A DNA stretch of 60,490 nt from Perkinsus olseni (lineage: Eukaryota): contig JABANN010000153.1 of the NCBI GenBank assembly GCA_013115125.1, positions 1-60,490 of the forward strand, read 5' to 3'. Shown in pieces: positions 1,511 to 60,490 of the stretch. Each line of letters begins with the position of its first letter. Position 1 is the first letter of the stretch. The position numbers were made by a program, and so were the translations under genes. Under the pieces are notes generated by a model. It searched no databases. It was not told the DNA's origin and was given only the letters and a program-made list of their open reading frames with translations.

Positions 1511-4500
1511 ATGCCGTATGAATCCGCGGGTTCAGCAGCGGGCGGATTGATCGATGCTCCCCATCCCGCCTTGCGTGAGCGTCTGATGTCGGGCGGAGCG
1601 GCAAATACCTTCACGATGCGGTCCAATTGCTCCAGGGTAATAGCGGTCGCCGAGGGCATGACGGTGTTCCTCATAAGGGCTTGGCGGGAAGAGTAGGAGG
1701 TCTATTAACATCGAGTGTCGTAGATATTCTTCGGGGTCAAAAGCGATTTTCTCTCCCTGTCTCTTTTGATAGAAACATTCTTTGCTGATGTTAGCCCTAG
1801 TCGATGTATTGATAACGGAATGCTCTTGGTAAAGCATCTTTGCTTCGAGGGCGTAACCCAGCGAGGCTCTGTCTCGTGTGCGGGCATTGGTCCAAGGAAG
1901 ACTGTGATGCTCTGTAGGCATACAAGCTGTTAGAATCGGATGGTGGCGACGGACTGAATCCATTAGGAGCCGGGGACTCCAGTGCAGAGGCGAGACCCGC
2001 TAAGAAGAAGAAAGGTAGTCCTGCTGCTGGCGGTAGTCTTCGCGGCTGGCATTGGTACAACAGTCTCTTGGCAGGTTCATTTATCGGAGTATTTGTTCCT
2101 ACCTGCGAGAACATGTGGGGAGTAAGTCGTTGAGCTTTTGGTGGCCGGCTCGGTATGTATGCTGTCCAGGTCCTCATCTTCCTCCGCTTCTTCACTATAG
2201 TCGGCAACGCAGGATTATTCCACTCCCTTTTGATCGTCCTATGCAGTTTCATTGTTGCCTTCTGTAAGCCCCCCCCCCGGTGGTCACCCTCCACACGCCT
2301 TTTCCTACTAGGTACCACGGCCTGTATGTCTGCCATGGCTAGTAGTGGTGGTCTGGTCTCTGAGGGAGGTCCCTATTATATGATTTCCCGTAGGTCTGGG
2401 AACGCGTTTCATCCATGAGGCTTAGCTCATAGCGTAGTTGACTTGTAGGCTCACTAAGACGTGTTATGCTTGTTGATGCTGCCGCTCGTTCCATCCTTGT
2501 GCAGGCACTATCGGAGCCTACCCTGGCGTGTCCATTGGTATAGCGTACTGGCTAGGCGGCACTCTCCTCGCGGTGATGGAGTCTGTCGGTGCTATCGATA
2601 CCCTCCTCATGTTGCTGCCCAAGGGTCCCAGCGGGGCTGTGATCCTGCCGGAATCAGCGTCGTGGCTGTCTCCTTTTCTGACACCCCTACCTTTATCATT
2701 CGCCCTCTTGTTCGTGCAGTTCCTCACGGTTTTCTTCGGCGGCATCGACGCGGTATCCAAGCTGGCTGTCCTCTTCATCGTCACTGTACTTGCCACCGTG
2801 GTTGCCTTCTTCGTCTCCCTAGCAGTTCCTGTATTCACAACAGGCGCCGACTTTCTCAGTGGCAACTTGTGGCCGCAGTACTCTGCCGGTACGAGCTTCA
2901 GTTCGATGCTCTCCCTCTTCTTCCCTTGCTTTACGGGGATACTTTCGGGAGCTAACCGTACGGATGTCCTCAAGGACCCACCGACCAACCTCAAGCGAGG
3001 GACCTTTGGTGCCATCTCCTTCTCCCTGGTCATGTACTCGTTATTCATGCTCCTCTGGGCATCTGCGGCGGACGCTGACAGTCTTCGAGGTAACATTGTT
3101 TTCTGCCAGTCTGTTGCGGTACGGTGGTTACGTTCAGGTGCTATGGACAACGGTCTGCTCTACAAGCTGCTGCTGCCGAATGCTCCAGTGGCCTTCGTAG
3201 GGGTCATGATCTCCTCGCTGTCTCAAAGCATGCAGTGTCTCGTAAGGTTGGCAGAGTTATTAGCCTCTCCGACCCACCTCCGGCTCAGGTTGTTGCCCCA
3301 AGGCTCCTATATTCCATAGCGTCTGATAACCTACTGCCACCACTCCGACCCATCGCTGTGCTGAGCGGGAAGTCGCAGGTAACCCTGGAGCGATATCTTG
3401 GCTCGGTGGTTACGCTTGCACGTTTTCAGGAACCTCATCGGGCGCTCGTGGTGACGATGATTCCTGCATGTCTTGCCCTAGGCATTCTCGGTTCCTCCCT
3501 GGACAGCATCGCTCCGCTGTTGACGATGTGTTTTCTGCTCTGCTATGCTTGCATCAACCTAAGCTGCCTCGTCCAGGTGAGTTCCTCGGGAACCCTGGTC
3601 CCCACTCACGCTCCGCTGTTTCAGACGGTCCTGAGCTCTGTCAACTGGCGTCCAGAGGGTATCCATACTTCCTACGGTCGAGCGTGGTACATATCCTCCA
3701 GCCTTCTGGGCTTCATCGCCTGCTGTGCTGTGATGCTCACGGTACACGTTGTGTTCGCCTTGGTTGTCTTTGCTATTTGTATTGCTGTCTACGTCTACAC
3801 CGACTACGTCAATGAGCGTGCGGCCTGGGGCTCAGGAATTGATGGCATCAGGTGGGCTGACGGAGCTATTTCGGGTAGCCGCACATCCGAAGTACGTTGT
3901 GTAGATACAACCTAGCACTGCAGACGCTGTTAGCCAAGGGGGACGAGCAACACCGCCGTGTCAATTGGCGTCCTCAGCCGCTGGTGGTCTATCAGGCTGG
4001 AAGGGAGGGGTAAGTCTATCACTATGAAATATCACATACCCGTTGGTTGTGTTAGAGAGTGTGACGTTCTGCTGAGCATCTGCAGCCAGATCAGAGGTGT
4101 CAGTAAGGGCATGTGCGTTGTCGCGGCCATCGCCGTTGGAGACCGAACGGACAGGGTAGGCAAGGCTCGCTTACAGAAGTGAATAGCACGGGTCCACCAT
4201 CAGCATCTGCAAGAAGCCCGAGGTGCCGAGGCTCATCTTCTCGAGCATAAGATGTCACAGCGTAAGGAAAGACCAACAGCGCTCATCAGTTGATCCGTGT
4301 TACCCCATCAGGGAAGCTTGATGGCTTTGCTACGGTGATACCTAGTCCGTCAATGTACGAGGGCGTCTCCAGTGCAGTGACCATCACCGGCCTCGGTGGT
4401 CTCAGACCTAACACTGTGAGCAGCTACTGCTAGAGCGAGGTGGGATGCCGTGGACGCAGGTCATTATTGCTTGGCCGGAGAAAGCGGACGGGTCGGAGCC

Positions 4501-7142
4501 GAGCAGCGGAGCGGCAGTTGAATTTGTGGGTTGGCGTTGGAAAAGATGTTCGAGTAAACTTGAGGCTTGGTGCAGGTCCGGACCCTCGAGGTCTGTCGAA
4601 TCGAGCAGAAAGCAGTGATTTGCGTCAAGGGTGCGTCTTCACGCTCTCTGTCCCGCTCCTTCTTGGACTACTTCGAGTACCCGGGCTACAGGGAGAGTCA
4701 GAAGGTCGGAACTCCGGCCAAATGCTACCAGTAATGAGAGTATTCCTGTCAGGTTGTTGATGTGTGGTGGATCATCCATGATGGCGGGCTGCTGGCGCTC
4801 CTTGCCTGGCTCTTCACAACACACGAGGTCTGGGTCTGGAAGACCACCCGGGTAGTACCGCATCTACCGCTAGCTCCATCGATCGTTGCTCTCCGCAGTT
4901 AGTCCCTGAGACCGTCACCCGAGGCTTCATATTGTCAGGTGCGAATCTTCGTAGTGATGGAGGAAATCACGGCGGAGCAGGCAGCAGCAGCCGGGCAGAA
5001 GCTAGAGAACACTCTCAGACGGAAGCGACTGTTCCAGACGGTTGAGGTGGAGGTCGTCGTTTTGGATGATAAGATGATCGAGCCGTACACCTACGATTGG
5101 ACTCTTCGCTACGAGAAGAGGGCGCAGTTCCAGCCCACGGTGGGTTGCATGCACGCTAGCGTCCCTTCGAGGAGGGATGGGGTCAGATTCACCAAGCACA
5201 CGCCAAGGAGAACGTCTTCCCGAGCCAGCTCGATGACCTCTTCTCTGATATGAACGCTAATAACGCTGCCGAGGACAGTGGTGACCACCCGGACAAGGCC
5301 AAGCCCAGTCGGGGATCGGTCGACGATCTTCCCGAGAAATCGGGGTCGAGGCCGTCAGCGATGGATTCGGATCAGCTACAGGTCAGTCACAGCCTCTCAG
5401 TGGGTGCAACTAAGGTTGATTCCTTCCAGATTGACGTGCCACGCTCGGCCGAGGCTGAACCCGCCGGTGTGCCGGGTATTAATATTCACGATGCGCAGAC
5501 GCACACCCCGAGGACGCCCCAAGACAGGCCCAGTGGGGATGATACCCGAGGCCTTGCTAGACGAACGTCCTTTTCAAGCATCGGTTCCCTCAGTTGCACG
5601 TACGGCCGAGATATCGGATTGCCGAGAGGAATCTCCCGTCCTTTCAGGGAGGGCCAGGCGGTTTATACGAATGATGGAAGGCGCAGAAGTCAAGTCTACA
5701 ACAGTCTTGGCTCGGTCGATGAAGCGGAGCTCCGGCAGAAGATAGCGGATTCCCTCCGGGCGCAGGGAGGTGAGGCGTCCCCGCGCGCGGCGTCTCGGAT
5801 GGGCTTCCTTACCTCAGTGTTGGTGAGCCCAGCGCGGGAGAAGCAGCTGCTGCGGAGTGTCGGCGCGCGCGTGCTGAACAGAAGGGCTGCTATGGAAAAT
5901 GCTGCAGGCAAGCCCGGATGGATTTTCGTGGCGCGCGAGATATTTCCTTCAGCCTGTGGTCTCAATAGCCCGTCGATGATGGGGTCTAGTATGGCGGCTA
6001 ACCCGGCCATGTTCGACCACCATGACACCAGTGGGGGGCGCTACAACTCAGGTCAGTCTTGGGCTCTCCTAGCCGGGAGCGTTTTCTGGCTCTTGTTATA
6101 GTCATCCTCCCGGGACTGGACGGATTGGGCCACGATAGTATGACGGTATGTTAGTCCTTTCAGGTCAGCTACTGGACCCCCTACTCCCGGGCTCTCGCCT
6201 GCCTAGTACGTGCTGAACGGAGATGGGCTTCGGTTTATCATCCTTCTCGCAGGTATGGTCGGTCAAACCCCTGTGCCGTCGTCAGCATTTGATGGAACGT
6301 CTCATGCGCCGAGCCGTCTCATGGCGCATAGGACGGGCCAGCCCAGCTTCACTAGGCTGCAGAGCCAGATGTTCTTGCAGCCGCCGCAGGCCACCGGTGC
6401 GGCTACCCAGCAAGAGCTGACTCCCACCGGCAACTTTGTTCCACACCCCGGCCCCGCTTCGTCTCGTGGCAAGGACCTGCCTTCTCCGCCCGCGTCCGGT
6501 TTGGAAGTGCCGCTCATGGTGAGTCCTGTCGAAGAGTTTAGATGCTGGTTCCATTCCCTACTATGGAAGTCGATCACTGCCCGCCAGGTGCCGGTGGAAG
6601 AGGGTTCAACGGAGTCAGTCGGACACGAGAACGATGGTTCGGAGCGGCCTCGCGATGTCTCCGCCAGCCACGATGACTGCGAGCAGTATTTCTACACGCT
6701 CAATCGGATCATCCTATCACGGTAAGGGACCCCTTTTTGGATTTAGATGGGACTCATTATCCCTACAGGTCCTCAGAGAGCTCCCTAGTCTTGATGAACA
6801 TGCCAAGCATCTGGTCGGTTGAAACAGATGATGACTGTGAAGCCTTCACTGCGTAAGTCTTTCCCGTCGTTTGTAAAGTGGTAATTCTTGCCTGACGTGA
6901 ACTAACTCTGCTGTTGTGGAATGCAAATCGCAGTTGTCTTAGTGTTTATGTCGTCCGACAGAGCCTCGCAGCCAACACATCGAATAGCGGGAGAGTCTTG
7001 AGAAGGGGGATTCTTTTCTTCCCAACTCGATCGACTTTGCATTTGCATCTTATGGCGCTTCAGGTACTGTGACTGCCTCACTGCGGGGCTCGAGAGGGTT
7101 CTTCTTGTAGCCGGCGGTCGAGACACCCTACTCGACTTCTGA
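1511..7142 (+). CDS. SLC12 cation-chloride cotransporter #1 (KCC/CCC-like), multi-exon
   Basis: Motifs GVFVPTCENMWGVLIFLR, GGPYYMISR, LFFPCFTGILSGANR, SIAPLLTMCFLLCYACINLSC, WGSGIDGIR, NWRPQ, GLGGLRPNT, VDVWWIIHDGGL and the C-terminal CLTAGLERVLLVAGGRDTLLDF* (TGA 7140-7142). Start codon tentative. Confidence 0.92.
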
Positions 7143-13098: not shown

Positions 13099-13667
13099 CT
13101 GATACTGGTTGCTTTGGTCGTTCACTAGTGTCTATTTTAATGCGTGATCTGATCCAACAGAGTGGTTTCTAATATCTGGAGTACTTGTGTGACGAGCGGG
13201 CCTGATCGATCTTGCTAAGTTACCTGAAGGATTCACTTGGGTCACGGGTCACGCGCACCACGAGAGCGTTGGATTCAGGCAACTTGCCTGAGGCAAGTGC
13301 GTTATTGGTCGGTGGAGACGTGTTTGACTGATCGAGCGGCGATAGAGTTCCTGGCTTTCGACGCTGGCCTCAGGGCCTCTACTGCTGGTTTCCTTCTCAG
13401 TGCCTCGTATTTGACGCGGAGGCCGGAGGCTTCTCGGGCTACGACCGAGTTGATTATCTGTTTCAGCAATAGTTCATGTCATACGTCTGAAGTTAGCCCG
13501 AGCGATATATCCCCGCTTGCATGCCCAGGATGGGCTTCTGTCTGCCATACTGAGATGCCTCCGACTAGCACTCGGGACCGGACGTTGCGTTTCCATCGGC
13601 ATGTCGACCGCCCTGCGTTGGGTCCTTGCGTACGCGAGTGTCGACTTTCTCTCAGTCCACTCTTTCA

Positions 13668-15286: not shown

Positions 15287-18200
15287 ATGGACTACTCAGA
15301 GCAGGACAATCTCAACGGCATTCGTTTCAGCTGGAACGTTTGGCCGACGAATAAGCTCGACCATACCAGGATCGTCGTGCCCATGGGAGCACTGTAGTGG
15401 AGGGGGAGGGTCTACGCGTGTGTTGGCGCATTTATGGTACTCTTAGATACACTCCGCTGAAGCAGACCACTAACCTCAACTTTTTCGAATATGAGCCTGT
15501 CCAGTGCCGAACCCGGGACTGCAACGCCATCTTGAACCCCTACTGGTAATAGCCCCTGTTCTCTTCCGCCTTCCTCGCCCACCGGACGTCTTTCAGTGTG
15601 GTTGATCTGAGGTCTAAGACTTGGGCATGCCCCTTCTGTCTCCAGCGCAACTCCTTCCCGCAGATGTACGCTCAGGTTATCTCTGAGACTGTAATAACGG
15701 ATACGTTAGTCGCCCGTATTTTTACTTTCACCTCTTTCAGATGCTGCCTGCGGAGCTACAACCTCAGTACACTACGATCGAGTACATCCTCCCCAACCAA
15801 GCCGTCCAGCCGCCGGTAGTTCGGGTATTGAGTGGGTTAGTCGGTAACTGAGAACGTCTGCAGGTGTTTCTCTTCGTCGTGGATACGTCGATCTACGAGG
15901 AAGAGTTGGAGCAGTTGAAGGACTCCCTGCAGCAGTGTCTCTCTATGATGCCTCCGGACGCCCTCGTTGGCCTCATCACTTACGGCACGATGTGCTATGT
16001 CCATGAGCTCGGTAAGGGTGGTTTAAATTGAAGAGGGTAAAACCCGCGTGGTCAGGTAACCAGGATATGCCCAAGGCATATGCCTTCCGAGGCACCAAGG
16101 AGATATCGTCACAGCAGGTGGCTCAACAGCTGGGCTTTGCCGTCCGGAACGATCCTCGTGGGAGTACTGGGGGCCAAGGTTCAAGACGGTAAGTTGAAGC
16201 GCTGCTCAACTTCGCTGTGGAGCCGTTGTGGTAAGGTTCCTTCTGCCGATCGAGGACTGCGAGTACGCTATTAACAGCGTACTTGATGACTTACAGAAGG
16301 ACCCATGGCCGGTGGCATCGGGAAAAAGACCGCAGAAGTGCACAGGGGTGGCGATGTCGGTCGCTGTTGGTCTGATGGAGACCACTCATATGCAGCAGTC
16401 AGCTCGAGTGATGCTCTTCACTGGAGGTCCTTGGTAAAATTGTCATCTTCTGAGCTCGTTTTCCATCGGCCGTTTCCCGTTAGCACTATCGGACCCGGCA
16501 TGGTTGTTGGAACCGATATGTCGGAGCCGATCCGATCGCATGTCGATCTTCAGCGGGAAGAGAAGAATGCGAGGTAGCGCGGACTAGGAGAGGCATTCGC
16601 CACACTAGGAGTCCGGGCAGGTACACTAAACCCGCCATGAAGTACTACAACGCCATTGCTAATCGGGCTGTCCATGCGGGAATGGCGGTCGATATCCTGG
16701 CGTGTAACCTGGATCAAGTTGGCCTGTACGAGATGAAGGTCGTCAGTGAGAAGACTGGTGGTGCAGTGGTCCTCAGTGATAGTTTCTCGATGCACGTAAT
16801 GACTCACGCTCGGGAGCTGTTGACCGGAGTATGACTTTCTTCTTGGTCAGGTTTTTAAGGCTTCGTTCCAGAAGATGTTCGAGCTCGATCAAGACGGGTA
16901 CCTTCAGATGGGCTTCAATTCCAAGATGGATGTAATACTCCCTCGCCGCTCGTCCCCGGTTATTCTCGAACCAGTCTTACTCGTAATGGGAATGGCGAGA
17001 GTTTCCTTGCTTCCATATATGCTTGTGTGAGCCAACTAAGGGTTCTTCTTGGGGTAGGTTCTTACATCAAGAGAATTTAAGTGCTGTGGATGTATAGGAG
17101 CGTGTACGAGTGCAGCCAAGAAGACGTCATCTGTGGCGGAAACTGAGATTGGCGAATCAGGTAAGTAGCTACGTTGCCCTCCTACTTTCGCTGATGCGCT
17201 AGAACTCACACCGCATCTCCTGTCAGGCACTACTGAGTGGACTATGGGTGGACTGGACAGGGACACTACCTACGCATTCTACTTCGAGCCCACAGCGACC
17301 CAAGCGGCGTCGGGTGGTGGACCACGCCAGAGCTACTTGCAGTTCCAGACGCTGTACAACCATCCCAGTGGCAGGAAGCGCCTGCGGTAATAATGGATCA
17401 AAGAGCGATGAGCGCTCGAAGGGAATCCGGTATTGAGTAGTCAACCTCCCCGCATCTTTTCAGAGTCACTACGGTCTCCACGCGCTACGCTGATCAAATC
17501 TCCGACATCGCCACCGGGTTCGACCAAGAAGCAGCGGCAGTACTCATGACAAGGTATTTCCCTTCACTCACAGTCTTTCGCGTAGATTATTTTCCGACAG
17601 GTTCGCGGTGACGAAGTGCGAGACGGAAGATCCATTGGATGTTATGCGATGGGTTGATCGTATGCTCATTAGGCTCATCGCTCGGTTTGCGGACTATAGG
17701 AAGGTGAAGCGTTGTGGCCCCTGAAGCCAGTCCGCCATCGCCTGCTCTTGTTCAGGATGAACCCAACTCCTTCCGATTGGCGAAGGAGTTCACCATCTAT
17801 CCCCAGCTGATCTACCACCTCAGACGATCTTCGTTCCTTCAGACGTTCAATGCATCACCTGATGAGACTGCGTACGTGACGCGCTGATTCTCGCGGTCGT
17901 TTCCTCTTCACGTGGCGCTATGCTCGGTTTGATTCTTCTGCTTCCGCTAGGTACTACCGCACCATCCTCATGCGTGAAAATACCAACAACTCTCTGGTGA
18001 TGATCCAGCCAGCACTATTACAGTAATACCCGTATCAATCGCTTTCGCAGATGGGTAGCTCCCCTTAGGTATTCGTTCGAGGAAGGCCCGCCACAGCCAG
18101 TGCTGCTTGATGCTAGCTCATTGAAGCCCAATGTCATATTACTTTTGGATTCGTAAGTCGTGCTTCGTCTTTTCGTTTTTCCGCTATCTTCTCCGCAGTT

Positions 18201-18653: not shown

Positions 18654-19413
18654 ATGCGGCATTATGTGTTATCAACCTCACCGCTGCTACAACATTTTGT
18701 CGTATTGGTTTCCTTGCTGGGGAATGGGTAACGGGTTGCGCTAACAGTTTCGGCTCAAGCGGTGGGGGGAGGATGATAATAGAGGAAATATGAGTAGACG
18801 CCCAGGCTGTTGAACCAGTTGAATTGAAGTGGCTCCCGAATCTCTGATTCCACAGCACACATGAAGTCTTTTGTCGCACTTCGTTTGTCGCATTGTCGGT
18901 AGTTCGATGGATGGTCGCACTGAGGGGCACTACGTTCGATATGTATGAACATCTACTCGTCACCGATTTCTCTTGTCATATGGCCCATATGATCCAGCTG
19001 ATATGAGGTCTTGTCCTCTCAAGCACGTCCAGTAGTGGATGAAGAATCTTGACTCAAGATCGTTACGCATCAAAATCATCGAAATGTTGAGCCACACTCT
19101 GACTCCTATATCTACTCGTCACCGATATCTTCCAAGCGTTCGGCAGGCGATCATGACACATAGGTAACGCATTCGGAATGCGGCATTCCAAAGCAGGATT
19201 GCTTGGGATACAGCGTTCACGTGAATATCCTTGGCGAAGCAGATAGCTGTGCAACCTCGATTGCCAATGGTAAAACAGAGTTCACCCAGTTATCCCCTTT
19301 GGTTTGAAGACATAGCACGGAAAGTCACTTTCAATTCCTCCTGTCATCCTCCTACGTTCGATCTTCGGTCGCGTTTCGAACTCAAAAGACATGTGTGCTT
19401 GAAGCGGATCGCT

Positions 19414-20563
19414 TCAGGAGACCATTTGCTCCTTCAACAATGATACATAACTTCTTGCGAAGTTCACCAGGAACAATTGAACAGTCGCTACAGGGACATA
19501 ATCGTCCAAGTGCTCATCGTCGAGTGTCATGAGCTCCATGCCCTCGGACACCTCCTGCAGTAAATCCAGGAAGCCTGAGAAGCCCCCTCTCGCTCGTCGC
19601 TAACGCCTTCGAATTATCACATCACACCTTGTTGATCGCGAAAGTCTGCTATATGGTATTGTTGCAGAAACGTATGTAGATGGTACACAGCGTCTCGGGT
19701 CATGAATCTGAAATGCGGGAAGTTCCCGCCGGGAACTCTTGTAGAATTGGTAACCAGTATGAAAAAAGACCTACTTCACTCCGGGATAGGATGGGAAGGT
19801 TGTCGTCCGTTCGCCTTGTGCAACCAAGCGACATATCCAATCCGAGAAGAGGCTGTAGTCGGAGGACGCAAATACCTGCGTTATAGGTGAAGTTGAGGAG
19901 TGGTACGAGATGGTGACACGGCGGTACATCATTGTACATATCTACGACGCAATGAGCTTGAAGATACTCTTTGAAGTCGTAGCTGCCATAAGTTTTGAAG
20001 AGCCCATTGCAGTATCTGAGACAACCTGTGTCAGGCTCGCCGAGAAAGCGACCGCACTGCATGAGCCGCGCCTCATGAGCATCACTAATCAGACGGACTA
20101 CGGCACTTGTCCTCTTACTCTGCGAACCCCATCAGCTCTGTAGAGTCCACGACTCCGTCTCGTGCAGCATCCATTTTCCACAGTATCTGCCGGTTACTGA
20201 TAGTAGTGTCTCCACTGACGCGTCCCCGCCCCACAGCCATGTGGTTGAGGTCAATCGACACATCCTGAGGTGTTCGGAGATTCCGTATTTCATTTAGATA
20301 GAGGACCTGTCTGTCGGCCAGGTTGTTGGTAATCGCGCTTCTCGCATCCGCGTCCTGAATGCACGGTACCGTCGAACGTGAAAAAATAAGGTCACCTCAT
20401 CTAGGTCAGGGGACTTGACGGTTGTCAGAGAACCCGATTCCGCCTTCACCCGCTGGAACTCCTCTAGTATGTATCTAGTGAACAACAATCTCTCATGTAC
20501 CACTGCGTTCTTCGAGCCTTACTGACCGATGGGAGAATCAGCTACACTGGCATGAGCACCCAT
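19414..20563 (-). CDS. EF-hand-containing protein with putative N-myristoylation motif, multi-exon
   Basis: Spliced reading MGAHAS...RYILEEFQRVK...IDLNHMA|ILWKMDAARDGVVDSTELMGFAE|YCNGLFK...FSDWICRLV...GFLDLLQEVSEGMELMTLDDEHLDDYVPVATVQLFLVNFARSYVSLLKEQMVS*. First exon junction unresolved. Confidence 0.7.
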
Positions 20564-20678: not shown

Positions 20679-23600
20679 TCAAGAGGTCTGGATGACATCA
20701 TCCACGACGTTACCACGGATGAGCAACACTCGCTTGAGATCCGCACAGAAAAGCTCCACGAGCTGCATGTAGGCTAGAGAGCCTTCACCTGGGTCCAGGC
20801 TCCGTTATGATGGCCGGTGCCGGAGGACACACCTTCAGGAACATCGAAAAGGTTGGTAATCACGACTCCGGCATCTGAGCTATGGAGGACCATCTGCTCG
20901 TTCACGACTCTGATCCGAGAGATGTTCTCCGAACAAGCAGGTGACTTGCCTGAGTCGATACTGCGGCAACGACTTCGGTGATGATTCACCTTCGCACTTT
21001 CAAGTCTCTCCACTCCCAATGCGTACGCACTCTCCCCGCGCAGTTTTGCAGAGTGTAACTTCGGGTCCTGCGAAGATCGATTCTAACGAGGCGAACGTAG
21101 GAGAATACCACTTTTCCAGCTGATCCCCGAGTGAGGGAACCTGAGAAATGAGGGAATGTCGCCGTGGCATCGGCTTTTCCGCTCCATTCAAGAGGCAGGT
21201 GATCAGCAATGCTTGGTAGACCAAATGGTGAAACCCGACTCACGGTGCATGGTCGCTACTGCCCCTGGTGTCCCGATAGCCTGAGAAAGCAAAGGCTGAT
21301 CACGATAGGAAAGTGAACAATGATGAAACACTGAAGATCGGGTTGAGCAGTCGGTGTGGTCCTCTGAGGGAGTGACGACGACCGCAATGGGCTAAAGGGT
21401 AGATCTGAACTATTACCTCAGTAGACCTTCGCAAAACACTGGGTGAAGCTCCGAACCCTGAATTAAAGAAGGGACGACGTGCAAGTGACGGTCTAGAAAC
21501 TACGAGTCCTTCCAGACTTAGGGGAGAGTTGGTCATCAACACCATCGATTATCTGATGCGACAAGCAACGTGAGCGAAACATGTGAGCCGAGTTAGCCCA
21601 CGATGTCCACCGCGTGCTGGGATGCGGGAAAGAGTTCACTGTTGTTTACGGCAGACGGGCCAGAAGCTCCCCTCTGGGGACTTATATTCGGGGTCAGTTT
21701 CTGGAGAGGGGAACTTCGCCGGAGCAGCTACCTGCATCTTACCCTCCCTAGCCTTGGAGGCTCACTCGAAATATCATCGAACTCGATGTCCTCCATCACT
21801 AAGCGACCTCTTGGACGCCGGTGAGAGAATTTTGTGAACTGATCAGAACGACTTGAGCACTCCAGCAGGGCATGGAGTGCATAAATTCCGCAGAGCTCGT
21901 AACTGAACTATCGGATTCTCATAATCTATCTCTGAGATCGGTGACCCCTAGCATAGTTATTTACAGAGGGATCCTACGTCACTCACCCCGAGTGACATCG
22001 AAGATTTGTTGGTGAAGTCGCTCAGGGCCAAAGTGCGTCTCAATGTCTCTCCCTGAGAGGAACCGTTTCTGTCGCCTTCTTAACAGCGGCTTGGAGCTCA
22101 CCGCGTGCGATACTTTAACGCTGGCCTGATTCGTCCACTCGCCACCTTCGAATTCAACCTGACCGCTGACAATATCAGCCAACCAAATGTGGCACTGGCG
22201 TACGTTGATGACTTGAACTTCGGATATGAAATCATCGAGTCTGTGATGTTTCAGCCATTCCTGAATCGTCAAGCTCACTGCACCCAAGTCTGCCTCGGCC
22301 TCCTGCTTGGTGAGGCTATCGACTATGTGGAAGACCCTATACAAGGGCAGTGAGGGGCCGTCATTTAGCCTCCCCTCACCGTATTCTGCAGTCGCGCCAT
22401 ACCGGATGTTTCCGAAAGAGGTAGGCGAGCATGATACCCCAGCCGCCGTCGCCAATATTCCACCAGACGTCCATGGTAGTTCCTGACGGCTGGTTGGCCA
22501 TGTAGGCTCGCCTTTGACAGGCAATATCTACCTGTTTGTCATAGAGTTGGAGGTCTTCGAAGTTCTTAGCCAGGATAACCGTTTTCTTCAGGACTTCGGA
22601 GTTGAGCATGAAGTTCATAAAGGTGTATCTGCGGCCTTCTTGCAAAAGCGTTCAGAGGAGGACGGACCTAGTCTCAGTATCCACCAACCACAGTAGTGGC
22701 CAGCTCGCCATGACAGCGTTGGGTTCGAAGGCTCCAAGGCCTGAGGTCTGCAGTAAACACTGCAACGCTATGGAGCGAGATCCAGGACTGCAATGAAGAA
22801 CCTGGAGAGCTGGGTCAGCGAGGCCGGCGCTGCTGTTTTGACATACTTGGGCGAAACCGGGGATGCCACTTTCGTTGAGTCCTTGCTGGACCGCCGCGTT
22901 CCAGTTCCTATGGGTTTACAGGAGACAACAGAGTGAAGCCTTTCTGGGCGCGGCTTACGGTAACGGCGAGCAGTTCTTGCCATGCGGGCTGCCACCATGC
23001 GCCAGTTGAGGTGATTCGACTATGGCTCCGACGATGAACAGCCCACGACCATACTTCAACTGATCGGCGAGTTGAGAATTAGTGAGCGAGGTACATGAAG
23101 CTCAACCTGGTTGGCGAGGTGGACCAAGTGGATGTGATGGAGCTCGACGCCGGATCCTTCGGAGCCCGCTTCGGGATGATCCACGGTAACGCCGGTGAGG
23201 ACGAGTAGCTGAACACGAAGTGAACCCCTTCTGAGAAACCCTTGTTCGTAGGCTCAGCCTACGGCCTACTAGGCTACGGATCGTAGCATTCCTTTCAGAG
23301 AGCATGAGCGTTGGCGAGTTTGAGGAGCAGAAAAGAATCCCGCGCTCGCCAATACTTATTGCCTGCTTTCAAAACGGGCAATAAGTATTCTCCGAATGCT
23401 TCGAAAGCAGTGCTTTCAGAACACTTTATCGAAGGCACGTTTAGTTAGCTTGATGTCATTAAGTTGATGAGGTATGGGATGAGTGGGTTAAGCTAATCCG
23501 ATCAGCAGAAGGACGGAGGTCTTACGAACCGTAAGTTACGATCGTCTGATCGTTCTTCAGCAAGTTGGAGCTCGGCTGTGAGATCGAGGTTCAGTGAAAG

Positions 23601-26600
23601 TCCGAAATTCGAACTTTCACTAAACCTCGATCTGATAATCAGATTCTGATTCGAACTTCGAATTTACTTTCACTTTGTGTTTGGTAGGGAAGTTTGAAGT
23701 TAAACTTTGAACATCTACTCGTTTTGTCATGCTTTTGGACGGCGATCCAGGGGAACACGTATTCAAGTTGCATTTTTTTAAAAATGAGTCGGACAAGGTG
23801 CAAGGTGTGGATTGATAGAAGAAATGCGGCTTTTCTTCGCCGAACGAATTGGGCTCTGTCTCGTTTTCTAAGAAGCCATAGGCGGGCCGCTGCGGGTCAC
23901 CCGCATCTCCTGAACGACGCTGTATGGTTGTCCATTTCTCCACGTATAGTGGGACTTCTGGGTATGGAACCACCATTGACTACGGTGCGTTCTCGAGTGA
24001 CCGTGCCTTTAATGTAACGAAGCTTGTGATCCCGTATTCCGTAATTCTGGTAGCATACTACCAGAATTTGCCCCTTCCCTTCGGCTGCCTTTTTTCTTCC
24101 GAAAAAACGCGATGGGCCAGAGTCGTGATTGCGAGCTTCAACATCACAAGAATAGCGCCGTCATTCTACCTTGCCTTCAGTGGGAGCAATTTAGCGAACC
24201 GATTGGCCGCTGGGATACGGATGTTCTAGCGGTCCCGGGCCGATGAAGACGTGTGTCAATAGAACAAGATATTTTGGGAAAACGGCTGTCCGGCAGCCCG
24301 TTTGATGATATGGGGTTGATACAGCAGCTGAATGAATGTACAATAGTGCTGGCTCAATATCCAATCATCCGACCCTTCCGAAACGTCCCTCGAGTACCCC
24401 GGAACCGTCGACGAGTATTTCCTCTCTCAAAGATCCTAGTTGGCACTGCGACGCGCGATGACTTCAACGACTTCGTGGGGCAGTGAGCCAAGCCACAATT
24501 CGCCCTGCTATAGCTAAACCGACCAAACGTATGTGTTCGGCCGCACCTTCCTATGGAAGAGACTCCACTGGCAATTCTGAAAATTGATCTTCAGCAAGGC
24601 CCGTGGTCATTCGGGCTTACGAGTCGTAAGTTACGACGATCAGAGGTCAAGTTTCACACTTGAAGTGTGGTACACTCGAGGCTTTGCTGATCATTCAGAT
24701 CATCAAGGCTTTTGTTGATGAGTGGTGAATCGAGAGGTTGTGAGCAAAGGAGGAAAGACCAACAGAAGTATATAAGTTATATACTTATAAGACTTGTAAG
24801 GTAGCATGCTGCGCGGAGCTATTATAACTCAGTTATATCATACTGCATAAGCAGACCGCTGAAGCAGACCGCCGGTGGTGGCCGACCGGCGGGGCCCGAA
24901 CAGAGGCAATTTCTGAGCTCTTCCACCCACACAGTCCAGACAATGGGAGTCCGTCCCTCCGCATCATGGGAACTCAGCGCGCGGCGTACTTGTGGCCTCC
25001 ATGCTTGGCTATTTGAAGTATCGCTATTCATCCATCGAAGGGTATTTCGGGCGATGCGGTATCGCAGTCCCTGGATGATATCGCCGCCGCTTGAGTTCCG
25101 AGCATTGTGAGTGGCTAACCTAAGCACAATCACGTATCACGAAGACACGCGAGAGAGGTCAGCCCACATGAACACACATCCGGCAAAGGCGAACGCGATT
25201 ATAGCGGCCAGCCAGGAGATCGCCACCATCAATACCACACATTGTATCTAATAGAGGGCCCATGAAGCAATGGTCAATGACTAACGATCATTGGAAGAAT
25301 ATAGCTACGGCCCCGAGCAGCGAGATGGTCCAGTGATAGTATCGGAATGAAGGTCTCCAGTCTGGGTCACCGAGGAGATGTAGCAGACAGCAACCTGATG
25401 CTCAGCAGTGGCCGGCGTCTTGGTGACGCAGGAGAAGTGATAGCTCACTTATGTTCACACACAGGTAACACATTAGGAAGCACATTGTCAGAATGGGCGC
25501 TATCGCATTTATCTCGCCGATGAGTATCGCGCACGTACCTAAGCGAGAGCATCCGAGCTTACACCTCACAGTGCTGAGGCTTTTCACAGATTCTTACAGA
25601 TGACTGTGGCGAGTGCGAGGGACGGGTAGGGTTCTTTGCCATCGCGGTTGCGGAAACAGTTGAGAAAGGGGGCTAGCATACCTGAAGTTATACCAGATTC
25701 TACAGCAATTTCCAATAACTGGCTCACCGTCAGTAGCGATCGCTGTGAGGAGCCTTGTCGCTGACGTGAGAGATTGCAGAGCCGCGCCGAGAGAGCCTGT
25801 ACACTAATGATCTAACTCCACCGACGGAAGCAGCTCACTGGCTAGAACTCCATAAACAACAACTTCTCGAACTGGCCATGCGCTAGTGCCTGGCAGCAGC
25901 AACTCATACAGGGGCGTACGGGTAACGGAGATGCTCCGCCCAAGGGGCTACTCGCGAAGAATCGATCGTGTAGAAGGAGCTTTCGGTCTGCCGTGGATCC
26001 GTAGAGGAAGCAGAAGGATAGGTAGATAATGGACGTGCCTAGCCGTAAGACGACCACTATCAGCACACTGACAATAGGCTAGAGCTATGCCTCTCCGAAA
26101 GGCTACTCAGCTGTGCGAAGAGAGTCCCTGTAGGGATGGACCTCTTGGGATCCTTCAGCTCGCTGCTGCGGTTACTACCGGCCATGATACCGGTACCTGT
26201 TGCGCGGAAAGCTAGTGAATGGTAATCAAGTCGCGTGTAATACATGCTGGGAACCAAAGGGCCACCATAGCGAAAAAGTTCCAAGATGTGCCGCTGTCAA
26301 GTGGAAAGGCAGTCTGGATGGCATCGTACTGCGGATCGGCGTTCTGGCCGAAGTGCCTAGCAAGATAGGAAACTGAAGGCCCTCAAAACAACGGGGAATG
26401 AAACACCGGCTAGACACTCCTGTGAAGCCTTCTTCCACGACCCAGGTATGATTGAGAACCGTACCTGTAAGTACGGGAATAGAATGTCTCCTCCACTAGG
26501 GCTCTACGGACCTGACGCGCCTACGCCGTTCTGTTACAGGTAGATCTTACGGTGTAGGACTTACGCGTATGATACAATCTTGAACAGAATTTCAAGTGAG

Positions 26601-27966
26601 AATACAGATTATGGTGGCAATCCAGTGCAATAGATTCGGCAGCTCCGAAATCCAATGACCAAGTCAACATTTGCCGAACAGGACGGAGAGAGCATCTTAC
26701 TTAACAAGTCTGGAGTGACTGCTGCAGCGTTTGCCGGGTCGTTTAAATACGCAAACTCGATCTCGCTCGTCAAGCCGGTGGGGCCTATGAAGCAGCCCAG
26801 AGCCATACCTGACACAGCTCATGTGGCGTGTATAGGGAAGCACATGCGTAGAATTTGTAAGATAGTTGATTGGTTTTTGAGGGGATTCGTAACAAGTGAG
26901 GTATTTGTATCTTCTGAGAGTAGCGAGGCAAAGAACGGGGCGGGCACGTACAGAGTATGACGAGGAGAACGATGGCGAGGAACAGGGTGGCGGCCCTGAG
27001 AGGAATGGCAGTGACGAAGGGATGCACCGTGCGGGCGCACGGGTGCTCTCAGTGTGCCTACTTTGAGACGTATTTTAAGCCTGCCCCAACGACTAATGCG
27101 GAGGCTGCGAGAACGATGAGACCTACGACTCTGACATTGGCGACTGAACCTGTGGAAGAAATACCATGTGAGTCGTTCGCTAACCGAGTAACCACCCAAT
27201 CGTCCCCACTCACCTACATCAGCCGGCTGGGCGCCAGGGGCTCCCGTCTCGAAGGCCTCTACCGTCCCTGCCATGGACCAAGATGCCTCCGCTGGAGCTT
27301 CTCGGGGGCTCACCGATAATGTACATCGCTGCACCGATCCCATTGGCCAAGAAGAAATTGAGGCCAACAGCTGAGCCAATGGCCGGCCCAAGAGATCGCC
27401 TGATCGAAGCCACTCTCGCTCACTACCGGTGTGCAGGGAGTCCCTGCCAGGGACCTACGATATCAAGTAATAGCTGCCGCCGGCTTTGACCTTCCCGTTG
27501 GTAGCCACTGCTGATAGGGAGAGGCTCGTGATGAATGTACCTACACGTGCCTCCGTCGTAAGATGGGCGATATCCGTCATTCGGCTCACAGGTGCAGCCT
27601 AGAAGTACAGCGCCGAAGCTCTGCCACACCCCAGCCAGGCCGACTATCCATGGGAGTCTCAGGAAGAGTAGGACTCCTAGGATGTTGGCCATACATGGGA
27701 GCATCTGCAATGCTGGTGGTGGATGGGGCTAGCGAACCTTCAGAACCCACCACTCCCTGAATCGTTCCCTGCTGAGTGAGAGCAGTATCCCCCTTGCCTT
27801 CCTCATTTGCCTGAGTTCGACCACCATTCTTCAGGGCTACTCTATAGGTCCGTAGACCCATAGGGAGAAGCATGCGTTGCCCCGGCATTGCTGTCAGCCT
27901 ACTCACCACAAGATCGATCTTGGCGGCGTCTGTGGTCTTCAGCTTGTCCTCCGTCGAATCACTCAT
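20679..27966 (-). CDS. SLC12 cation-chloride cotransporter #2 (KCC-like), multi-exon, with a 1781-bp intron
   Basis: [115 protein letters not shown] and the C-terminal [32 protein letters not shown] (stop 20679-20681). Confidence 0.93.
23236..24910. mobile_element. Unclassified palindrome-rich insertion inside SLC12 #2 intron (intron 23209-24989)
   Basis: The intron is about 30-fold longer than its neighbours. TTCTGAG occurs at 23229-23235 and 24911-24917 (candidate TSD). There are more than 15 short inverted repeats and a central decayed ORF. Element class unknown. Confidence 0.55.
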
Positions 27967-28325
27967 GCGTAATGAGCACGTGACTATGCCGAAGGATGCC
28001 CCTCTTCGTCAGACTCTAGTCGGGTCACATACCCGGCGACCGAGTCTTGCACGAAATCTAATCTCATAGGCTATGTTCGCTCACTGAGGTACGATTGCTA
28101 GGAGTGATAGCAGTCGCAACGCAGTCAGCCAACTTCTCTCGAGCACAGCAAGGTTTCATCGAAATTACCCCCTGCCTGCCTGCCTGCCGGGCGGGGCGGG
28201 CACTGCCGCAGTGCCCGGAGCTGCAATCTGCATTGACCTACTCAACACCGCGTCGCGGGGCAAAATATCTTGCATAATACTAGGGTTGAAATGATATGGG
28301 ATGATTAGGGTACGTATGGCTGGAG

Positions 28326-29658
28326 TCACCTGGCCTGGGCAGCAGCGGCGGCGGCGTTCATCTTAGCTTGCTGTTCTTGCATTTCCGCAACGGCCTTCGC
28401 CGCTAGCTGGACAGCCTTGGCCATGGCGCTTTCTGTCAGCACCGATTCCGACTCCGGACACTCCCCGAAGGTTGCCGCGAATTCCAGCGCAGGCCTAAAG
28501 ATGCTGTCTTGTCCCTACGCAACTGTCATCCGCCCTCTTACTCTGGGCCCTCGGGCATTCCCATCCGACGTCGCCTGGCTATCTGTGTTTTCAAGTTCAC
28601 CACTTCCGCATTCACCAGGAGAATCTGCAATACAAGACGCGGTTGAGATACTTGTGTAAAAAGTTCTCAACCAAAGCTGGAGCAGACCATGTAGCCTCGG
28701 CCTACTTTTTCGGACAGCAGTTCGCATTCCAAGCGAGCGAGCTCTTTCCGGAGACTCACCACGGTGGCCTCGACACCGTCGCCGGGAGTGTTGATTGTCG
28801 GACTAAGGCGCACAGGAGGACTGCGCGAGAGATTGTTTCCATTGTCCACTCACCCTCTTGGAGGCGTACCGGGTGCCTGTGTATCCCGAAAGGTGGGGTG
28901 AACAAGGGCCGTGGGAGACAAATTGTAGGTTCCATTAGGACCTGTCAACTCATGCTAACAGCTCAATCCCGGACCACCGTAGATCTTGCAATCTTACTCA
29001 AACTTACAGTTCCTCAAAAACCTACCTTGCACTGTATTATCGTGCTCTTGCCATGGTAAGAACTCTGAGTACCTCGGCCAGTGCTTTTGCGACCACAGCA
29101 CATACTCATTGGCCAGCTTCATCAACGGTGGAGGGACCTTCTGTCGTATAAAGCCGACCTCCTGGTGCTCGTCCAACAGCTTCCTCGCCTTCGATATCAT
29201 CTGGTCTAGCTTCTTCCGTATCTGCCCTGCCGTCTTCGGGACGGCCTTCGGGTTCAGACCGGACATCGCAGCAGCTATGTTCTGGTACAGCTGGTCGCGT
29301 AGTGCTGAACACAACAACGGATGTCCGAGCGACCAGGCTTGCGGTACGTACTGACGCTGCCCTCCTCCCGGGAGCGGAGAATCTCTCTGTTGTCAATAGC
29401 CATGTCAACGAGGAGCCGAGTTTCTGCATCCGAGAAGTGCTGGCGCGTAGGGCGTACAAGTTGCTGAGGATTAACCGTCATACTTCCCGAAGCGGAAGAG
29501 GATGGCTCCACCTGAAGAGTATCCTGTGAGCAGCACGAGGAGCAACCTAAGATACTCACCCCGGTGTTGATGCCAGCGCTGGTCATGGGAACCACCGAAG
29601 CCTCGTCCACATAGACCACTGAGTCAATCGGTGGTATCAGTCCTCCTGGACCCGACAT
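28326..29658 (-). CDS. Myb/SANT-like (trihelix-type) DNA-binding protein with C-terminal coiled coil, multi-exon
   Basis: RQHFSDAETRLLVDMAIDNREIL...LRDQLYQNIAAAMSGLNPKAVPKTAGQIRKKLDQMISKARK fits the Myb/SANT-like fold. Later SLRKELARLECELLSEK; Ala-rich end. Confidence 0.75.
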
Positions 29659-58990: not shown

Positions 58991-60490
58991 GTGGGCTGGG
59001 CGTAGGCTGTGGTGAGGGGTGGTTGGGGTTGTCGTTGGCGTCGGCGTTAGCATCGATGCGAGCAGGAACAACGAAGCCGAGAGAGTAGAGGTCGTTCACG
59101 ACTTGATGGTAGCTTGAAGCCTCGGCGCTGTTGAGTCTGGCCATGACAGTAGAATCCCTCTTGATCGCAGCACCATTGTTGATGGGGGATGGCCTCGAGT
59201 CATCCCGCCACGGGACCTTGCAGTGCAACCTGCCGCGAGGAGCTGTCTCTGAGGGGGGGTCGATGGAGAAGTGAAAGAAGTCATCTTCAGACTTGGGAGA
59301 GTCCTCGCGACCGGCGAACTGTGCCCGAAAGGCGTCGATGGTTTGAGACCGGGTGAGACCCTTGATGATGCCGGAGCCTTCTTCCCGTGGTTCGGGAAAG
59401 AAGGATAGAGCCAGTGTTTCCCAAACATCGGTAGGGAGAGAAATGGTGTTGGGGTGAGTGTCGTCGTCATTAATGCTGGCAGCCGTGACCTCGCCGACCT
59501 TCGTCTGGGGAGCCATGATGTTGCAGAGCTCCGCGACAGCGCTATGGAGTATCGGTGACCGTGATGGATCGGCAAAAGGCTTGGGTACGCTCATCATTGG
59601 GATCGGTGGGCCGCTCTGATTGTCGCCGAAGGTGATGTAGTTATCGTGTAGGTGCCAGATGGCCTTTAGCCGACGAAGGAGTCCCACGGATAGTATCAGT
59701 CGATGAGCGCAGCCGTCAAGCACGTAGAGGTCTTCGGTGCAGTGAAAGCCATTGGAGGAGGATATAGGGACAGCCTTCGCCACACCACGAACAGTGGTCT
59801 CGGAGAGGTCGGCCAAGCGGATGCGAAGGTCGGCTTTGATGATGGTGAGGTTGAGAGATGCTGCTGCGCAACTGCTGACCACGGATACAGCTGCTCCAGA
59901 GTCGACAAGGGCCGGTATGTGGTTGACGGAGTGGTTGATGTGAAGATTGATGAAACTTAGTGGTGGAGTATCAGTGGCCGGTGACGAACTCGACGAGCAG
60001 GTGGCTGATACTGCGGCCGCGACAGGTGCGGCGCAGGGTCGAAAACGACGGCATGCTCGAGCAGCATGGTTCGCTTTGCCGCAACGCTCGCAGTTGCGAC
60101 CGCGGTAGTTGTCGTGACCAGTAGGGCAGTGCAATGAGTGGTGGTGGAGTAGACCGCAGTAGTAGCATCTCTCGTCTTTCCTTGTGAGATCCTCACAACA
60201 CGCTATGGTGTCATGGGACTCGGAAAGACATCGTTGGCACCGACTGGAGAGTATTTTGACATTGTATTCGTTGTTGAGGATGGCCGCGTCGTCTCTCACT
60301 CTTTGCCGGTAGGGCGTTGATGGCCTGGTGGGGCGGGTCTTCTTGTCGCTCTTCTGTCGAGATCCTTCAGTCGTAGTGGTGGATGATGTAGCGATTGCTT
60401 GTTGGGTGGAGAGCGCTGGGGATGGCGAGGTCGACAATGCAACGTTGTTGACGGCAGCTGTGTCACTGGTAGGAGGAGAGGATTGCCAGT
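58968..60490 (-). pseudogene. Retrotransposon gag (CCHC x3) + aspartic protease + RT N-terminus
   Basis: CQRCLSESHDTIAC, CYYCGLLHHHSLHC, CERCGKANHAARAC; ALVDSGAAVSVVS; HCKVPWRDD...YHQVVNDLYSLGFV. The frame is lost near 58980-59000. Confidence 0.9.

Follow-up and report, generated by a model that had tools for sequence, protein, structure and literature searches.

In a 60,490-nucleotide (nt) contig of Perkinsus olseni (GenBank assembly GCA_013115125.1, contig JABANN010000153.1, positions 1 to 60,490 of the forward strand; here called the window), a putative intron of 1,781 nt interrupts the second of two SLC12-type genes and is crowded with short palindromes. The initial annotation had taken these palindromes for the ends of an unclassified mobile or structured element that fills the intron. 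We confirm the observation and widen it to the whole window, and in place of an element we propose, as the probable explanation, that a cut-and-paste transposon of the hAT type, one that duplicates 8 bp of its target and leaves the flanking DNA as hairpins, left the palindromes behind as scars of its excision. The structure that carries this proposal is a 22-nt unit composed of three overlapping copies of one 8-nt word, the middle copy inverted. Because no transposon is seen, we infer the agent from what it would have left behind, and with it the order of events and the host nucleases involved.

Odd-centered palindromes and the 22-nt unit

Perfect palindromes with arms of at least 7 nt were collected over the whole window, sorted by spacer length and compared with 100 dinucleotide shuffles of the sequence. 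Spacers of 0 to 5 nt gave 5, 28, 7, 12, 4 and 5 palindromes, against shuffle means of 3.7 to 4.4 and shuffle maxima of 9 to 12; the 12 at spacer 3 take in spacer-1 palindromes with arms of at least 8 nt. A clear excess exists solely for palindromes with a 1-nt center (28 versus about 4), and for this one class the high palindrome density remarked on in the initial annotation is indeed far above chance. The arms of the 28 are 7 nt long in 20 cases, 8 nt in five, 10 nt in two and 17 nt in one. Their central base is C in 14, G in 12, and A and T in one each. Palindromes of the same geometry with arms of exactly 6 nt show no excess (12 versus about 11 expected). Among long imperfect palindromes with a score of at least 10, five have a 1-nt center (shuffles, 0) and one has no central nucleotide.

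Eleven of the 28 odd palindromes lie inside the intron; the rest are found at 12.4, 13.3, 19.0-19.7, 27.4, 28.2, 54.0-54.1 and 58.3 kb. Since the same structures stand outside the intron, at each of these places from 13.3 kb onward, they are a feature of the region or the genome and not, as had been supposed, a property of one element's ends.

Where such palindromes are chained, they form a unit that can be written in terms of a single 8-mer, T: T1-7, the reverse complement of T1-8, and T2-8, together 22 nt, or a net 14 nt more than T itself. The unit reads as two overlapping 7+1+7 palindromes, and in all chained pairs the two centers are exactly 7 nt apart. When all positions were scored by the number of implied pairs matched, the window contained seven units at 14/14, two at 13/14 and seven at 12/14, whereas 30 dinucleotide shuffles gave expectations of 0, 0.03 and 0.37, respectively. 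In each of the seven perfect units, T8 is complementary to the first center and T1 to the second. The geometry is specific to the 8-mer with an odd center. Of all word lengths from 5 to 12, tried both with the 1-nt offset and without it, length 8 with the offset was the only one to give clear hits (9 perfect or one-mismatch units versus about 0.01); in this whole-window scan the even geometry gave 0 hits, and lengths 7 and 9 to 12 gave no units.

An independent scan asked only for direct copies of T2-T7 with centers complementary to the neighboring base, at spacings of 0 to 20 nt. Enrichment was seen at spacing 6 alone (11 versus 1.05 expected), and in 10 of these 11 hits the inverted core forms the spacer (perfectly in 7, at 5/6 in 2 and at 4/6 in 1). 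The spacing result requires a direct duplication of T on both sides, which a simple break followed by fold-back would not yield. Moreover, six of the 14 palindromes that stand alone have a decayed third arm matching at 5/7 or better, against 0.36 expected, and in two of the decayed units, at 23449-23470 and 23521-23542 (each 12/14), one substitution in the middle, inverted copy accounts for both mismatches.

If the word T of each of the 16 units is taken as a former insertion target, the targets are biased in composition. S (C or G) is present at positions 1 and 8 in 25 of 32 cases (p 0.005), and T at position 2 or A at position 7 in 15 of 32 (p 0.002), a bias and not a rule. A preference for S-T....A-S words explains the C and G centers of the palindromes. 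The target words match the Hermes consensus as well as the weak consensus of Tol2.

Distribution of the units in and around the SLC12 intron

The interruption of the second SLC12-type gene runs from 23209 to 24989 on the minus strand. The exon 5' of it ends with the codons WRPQ and is followed by GTACGC; the 3' end of the intron is TTCAG, after which LLVL begins. Joining WRPQ to LLVL restores the reading frame with GT..AG borders, and on this point, as on the length of the interruption, the sequence reads just as the initial annotation had it. Downstream on the same strand, an open reading frame (ORF) at 22376-22651 matches the Pfam SLC12 family (PF03522, E 8e-7). The joined peptide aligns without gaps to NWRPQPLVV of a paralogous SLC12-type gene at 3900-4010 on the plus strand, a weak match (E 0.034 in a 12-kb database). 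The paralogue is uninterrupted where the second gene has its 1.78-kb interruption, so that the long intron is either a gain in the second gene or a loss in the first. A 20-nt inverted repeat (85%) at 39-58 and 6914-6933, about 6.9 kb apart, flanks the region of the first gene; it is not above chance.

The length of the intron is exceptional, given that the spliced introns of a neighboring gene are mostly 44-55 nt, the longest shown being 126 nt. That gene (15393-17951, plus strand), with no fewer than 15 GT..AG introns of 44-126 nt, is highly expressed in run X9 (contig depth about 795), a run that behaves as RNA and yields spliced contigs in the gene at 15.3-18.8 kb. At the second SLC12 gene its RNA-like contigs leave the exons uncovered and reach a faint depth (0.68) at 24222-24822 inside the intron, which is uninformative on splicing. 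In the diverged runs X7 and X8, contigs match the exons and about 25-28 nt of the intron from either end and then continue with unlike sequence (255 nt in X8), so the interior is very diverged or different in those strains. Both runs leave 23621-24822 uncovered, by itself no sign of absence.

The intron makes up 2.9% of the window yet holds nine of the 16 units (binomial P about 1e-10 if a uniform spread is assumed; with non-coding DNA alone as the reference the contrast is smaller). Three of the five long odd palindromes lie in it too, as do a composite and a 21-nt variant of the unit. Within it the palindromes crowd the outer thirds, 23247-23905 and 24616-24892, and by our count from the coordinates given here, scar and palindrome material amounts to roughly half of 23240-23720. 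The middle, about 23910-24610, has no unit and a single hairpin (24043-68, with 11-nt arms and a 4-nt loop).

The palindromes named in the initial annotation are all present, at or within 1 nt of where it had placed them. A 13-bp stem reported at 23351-23389 is there as a palindrome and is really longer, a 19+1+19 odd palindrome with two mismatches; another, of 26+1+26 with two mismatches at 23581-23633, had not been listed. The latter is the site of sub-threshold, miRNA-like Rfam hits. At the left margin, 23247-23287 is a composite of 8+1+8, 5+1+5 and 6+3+6 palindromes on one word and its complement, which we read as several events at one site. A four-arm zigzag follows at 23396-23424, where two 22-nt units overlap, each at 12/14. 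Beyond the unit at 23449-23470 comes that at 23521-23542, the first seven letters of whose T are those of the perfect unit at 24616-24637. The perfect unit at 23630-23651 is the sole one with A/T centers, and it is overlapped by a 7+1+7 palindrome at 23649-23663. The 21-nt variant, at 23692-23712, has two direct copies and the correct complementary centers, with five rather than six inverted letters between them. The remaining units of the intron are at 23884-23905 (12/14), 24648-24669 (13/14) and 24816-24837 (13/14), and a 10+1+10 odd palindrome occupies 24766-24786.

Outside the intron, perfect units stand at 13276-13297, 19168-19189, 19715-19736, 27433-27454 and 54091-54112, and units at 12/14 at 19039-19060 and 53972-53993. 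A second 10+1+10 odd palindrome is found at 28197-28217. In this window the units sit in the kilobases of lowest GC content, which we take to be non-coding; a test based on the longest open frame did not discriminate coding from non-coding sequence in this GC-rich DNA. The unit at 19168-19189 lies within a stretch of 131 nt (19128-19258) that contigs of both X7 and X8 skip and at which no terminal repeats are seen. The joint 19127>19273 in these contigs was considered as a test of the excision model and set aside as uninformative: its 14 joint letters are those of 19259-19272, and the difference is one of presence or absence of 131 nt.

At the far end of the window, three direct copies of a single 8-mer stand at 58345-58403 together with odd palindromes of 17+1+17 and 7+1+7. 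This cluster lies in the 5' part of a Bel/Pao-like long terminal repeat (LTR) retroelement (55622-60488, minus strand), whose 945-amino-acid (aa) ORF matches Peptidase_A17, Integrase_H2C2 and rve. A second ORF of the retroelement, of 506 aa and running off the end of the window, matches aspartyl proteases.

Proposed excision scars and the alternatives

Three properties of the unit need a common source: the direct duplication of 8 bp, the inverted copy between the duplicates, and the pivots on the complement of the outermost base. A hAT-type transposon supplies all three. In the scheme that we favor, an element would insert and duplicate its 8-bp target T; upon excision, the transposase would seal each flank as a hairpin whose tip is the complement of the transposon-adjoining base, that is, of T8 on the left and of T1 on the right. 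Host nucleases would then open both hairpins at least 7 nt from the tip, on the 5'-ended strand, to leave 3' tails. Both tails would carry the reverse complement of T and so would be mutually complementary over 8 nt, and their annealing and fill-in would give T1-7, the reverse complement of T1-8, and T2-8, the observed 22 nt with a net gain of 14. The longer odd palindromes, with arms of 10-26 nt, would come from hairpins that were opened farther from the tip and whose ends joined without such annealing. The distal opening and the annealing through an inverted duplication are our own addition to the known pathway. Zhou et al. in 2004 reportedly placed the first Hermes nick a single nucleotide into the flank. 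Yeast has known hairpin-opening activities, MRX with Sae2 and Pso2, that act at the tip or away from it.

Two individual sites bear on this scheme. The perfect scar at 27433-27454 fills positions 5-26 of another, 59-nt intron in this SLC12 gene and comes just after its GTAGGT donor. In our reading of the frame, the intron would measure 45 nt without the extra 14, within the normal range set by the neighboring gene, and we count this for excision. At 19715-19736, 13 nt (2+11) within the scar are missing from a contig of the diverged run X8, where the scheme predicts 14. As polymorphism in support of excision this is suggestive only, being a comparison of gap lengths alone at one site.

Several results weigh against excision by a hAT-type element. 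The gap in X8 is of 13 and not 14 nt, and X7 lacks those two gaps, with 20 gap letters over the same 570 nt. Neither a comparison of 30 ORFs with Pfam nor a scan for terminal inverted repeats with target-site duplications (TIR and TSD) turned up a hAT element, a transposase domain or a TIR-TSD pair in the window. Classical short hAT footprints are not enriched (direct-copy gaps of 0-5 nt occur 0-2 times each), so that repair would have to be unusually uniform. A third arm is missing from eight of the 14 lone palindromes. At least nine events in 1.8 kb amount to a very high local density, and the two scars on the same seven letters, at 23521-23542 and 24616-24637, are 1,095 nt apart, a coincidence that independent events do not explain. 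Finally, the three-copy scar was described in no paper found by a literature search, which did not cover Yu 2004 and Colot 1998.

The scars of that pair might be target copies of an older insertion of 1.07 kb. Both are preceded by GG, and each is self-consistent for its own eighth letter; the 8-mer adjoining them has opposite orientation at the two places. The heptamer CTTACGA, tried as a general motif, was dropped, with 6 matches against 5.25 expected. Two candidates for a transposon end fared no better: a 10-mer at 18951, 19110 and 23713 has 6 matches versus 3.2 expected, which is not significant, and neither is a 12-mer at 40 and 6921. The lone palindromes were also considered as open-and-shut joints beside a transposon end; by eye their flanks share at most TC, and decayed third arms are the favored account of them.

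In our reading, a long, insertion-tolerant and relatively GC-poor intron was repeatedly used and vacated, perhaps by one locally hopping element, and part of its length is accumulated scar. We hold a broader proposal only tentatively, as a possibility less likely to be right than wrong: that repair almost always produces the one 22-nt scar, leaving a legible and datable record of excision; that scars may attract further insertions, so that an intron grows by accretion; and that the core of this intron may be an older insertion. Were this so, each scar would recreate three overlapping S-T....A-S targets together with a small, cruciform-prone palindrome, and might thereby draw new insertions; the palindrome-free core of 1.07 kb between the two scars on the same heptamer could be an older insertion caught in the accretion. 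DNA transposons usually leave no visible trace of their excision in a genome, since the footprints vary and are short, and little is known of how often elements have left, where they had landed and how far excision has changed sequences. If scars are uniformly 22 nt long and keep the target word, excisions could be counted and dated genome-wide, former landing sites could be mapped, and the way in which a host opens hairpin-capped breaks and joins them could be studied. Dense short palindromes, and some of the lengthening of long introns, would then have a simple origin.

The scars could have been made in the same way by another superfamily that duplicates 8 bp and passes through flank hairpins, and no transposase is seen that would tell the superfamilies apart. 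Candidates are Zisupton/KDZ-type elements, whose target duplication is 8 bp, and Mutator-like elements (MULEs), with 8-9 bp. The MULE Muta1 makes 8- or 9-bp duplications and uses a flank-hairpin pathway like that of hAT elements (PMC5499845). Against such an agent, Muta1 excisions are more than 90% precise, and the window has no 9-mer units. In the work cited here, it is for hAT that the 1-nt-offset pivot and the S-T....A-S bias are documented. We regard a different superfamily as improbable.

About equally improbable, in our judgment, is template switching independent of any transposon, in which quasi-palindromes, fold-back synthesis or the templated insertions of alternative end joining copy adjoining sequence in inverted form. 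(Fungi are generally not known to have polymerase theta.) A zigzag of A, A', A and the multi-arm runs are what iterated snap-back synthesis would be expected to make. It offers no reason, however, for the exact 8-nt length and 1-nt offset each time, nor for S-T....A-S words, a single spacing or a required direct duplication. The initial annotation had named repeated fold-back synthesis among its possibilities, and part of that idea survives: the palindromes have the form expected of repeated hairpin DNA, with the hairpins placed by the excision scheme on the flanks of a departing transposon and not in the intron's own sequence.

The interpretation from which this analysis started takes the 1.7-kb segment as a mobile or structured element in its own right, with palindromic ends, such as a hairpin-ended replicon, a structured RNA or an organelle-derived insert. 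It would account for palindromes gathered in outer thirds around a palindrome-poor core, for a paralogue that has no intron at the site, for scars on the same heptamer that bracket the core 1,095 nt apart, and for the divergence of X7 and X8 some 25-28 nt inside the intron ends. The ends of the intron share no inverted repeat, the best reverse-complement alignment between them being 17 nt, and the sole repeat common to both is a 24-nt direct repeat that is the scar pair on the same seven letters. Around the intron, no 8-bp target duplication accompanied by terminal inverted repeats turned up in scans, and the window has no second copy of the segment. In Rfam, a search of 22000-26500 on both strands with E values up to 1 returned no family at its gathering score, and none of five internal ORFs tested contains a Pfam domain. 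The same type of unit occurs at unrelated places, moreover, and every palindrome differs in sequence. In our judgment the intron is very unlikely to be a mobile or structured element, whether of a known kind or of a new class.

Still less probable is that the palindromes are functional, as hairpins in pre-mRNA or DNA that serve splicing, small RNA or protein binding. The miRNA-like Rfam hits at 23584-23630 (MIR6459 with 29 bits against a gathering score of 100, mir-240 with 22 against 67.5) and the faint RNA-like depth at 24222-24822 would fit such a role; the hits are far under threshold, the sequences all differ, a 1-nt loop cannot close without opening inner pairs, and units are present outside the SLC12 gene as well. 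Least credible of all are artefacts of assembly or amplification, for which nothing specific speaks. Against them, six runs from two studies (possibly of the source strain) hold 99-100% of the sampled words of 21500-28500, one 33-kb contig spans 11000-29000 with three differences, and known chimeras give long palindromes rather than 15-22-nt units with target-site bias.

Comparison with known systems

The present case resembles introner-type intron gain by DNA transposons, reportedly described by Huff et al. in 2016: a long interruption falls where a paralogue has none, and the genome shows signs of traffic by DNA transposons. In contrast to introners, the SLC12 intron belongs to no repeated family and has neither terminal repeats nor a border duplication.

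Excision of a hAT-type element, the origin that we favor for the scars, is compared here with published work. Elements of the hAT type leave flanking DNA as hairpins (PMC5499845), and the hallmark of their excision is a palindrome that pivots on the complement of the transposon-adjoining base (PMC5873905). In Saccharomyces cerevisiae the arms of such palindromes reach 20 nt, and the joints are mostly made by microhomology (PMC5873905, PMC1978519). Target duplications of hAT elements are 8 bp long with a 5'-nTnnnnAn-3' bias (PMC10368747). Tol2 has the weak consensus TNA(C/G)TTATAA(G/C)TNA, with C or G at the ends of the 8-mer followed inward by T and A, and often reinserts on the donor chromosome, frequently in introns (PMC2753552). 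The scars of the window resemble the footprints of Ac/Ds, Hermes and Tol2 in their odd palindromes with complementary pivot, in the duplicated 8-bp target, in the nTnnnnAn bias with, as for Tol2, C/G ends, and in the long arms that are possible in S. cerevisiae. The hAT footprints are joined by microhomology after hairpin opening, and the same kind of joining would produce the scars described here.

A fungal hAT-like element is a further point of comparison. Colot et al. in 1998 are said to have linked the footprints of Ascot-1, a Ds-like element of Ascobolus, to hairpins of the V(D)J type.

A case of deterministic repair is offered by mPing, where the duplicated target on both flanks provides the homology (PMC4561436). 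There the direct copies anneal and excision is precise, whereas here the inverted copies would anneal and add 14 nt. Published hAT footprints are heterogeneous and mostly short, the short form being common in plants and Candida (with a palindrome of at most 3 nt in Candida), and they come from reporter assays. In the window, one full-length product dominates, and it is met at high density in a natural genome, known here from scars alone with no element beside them. The kind of event is a known one; what appears to be new is that the three-copy scar is uniform, that it is so dense in a natural genome and that it piles up in a single intron.

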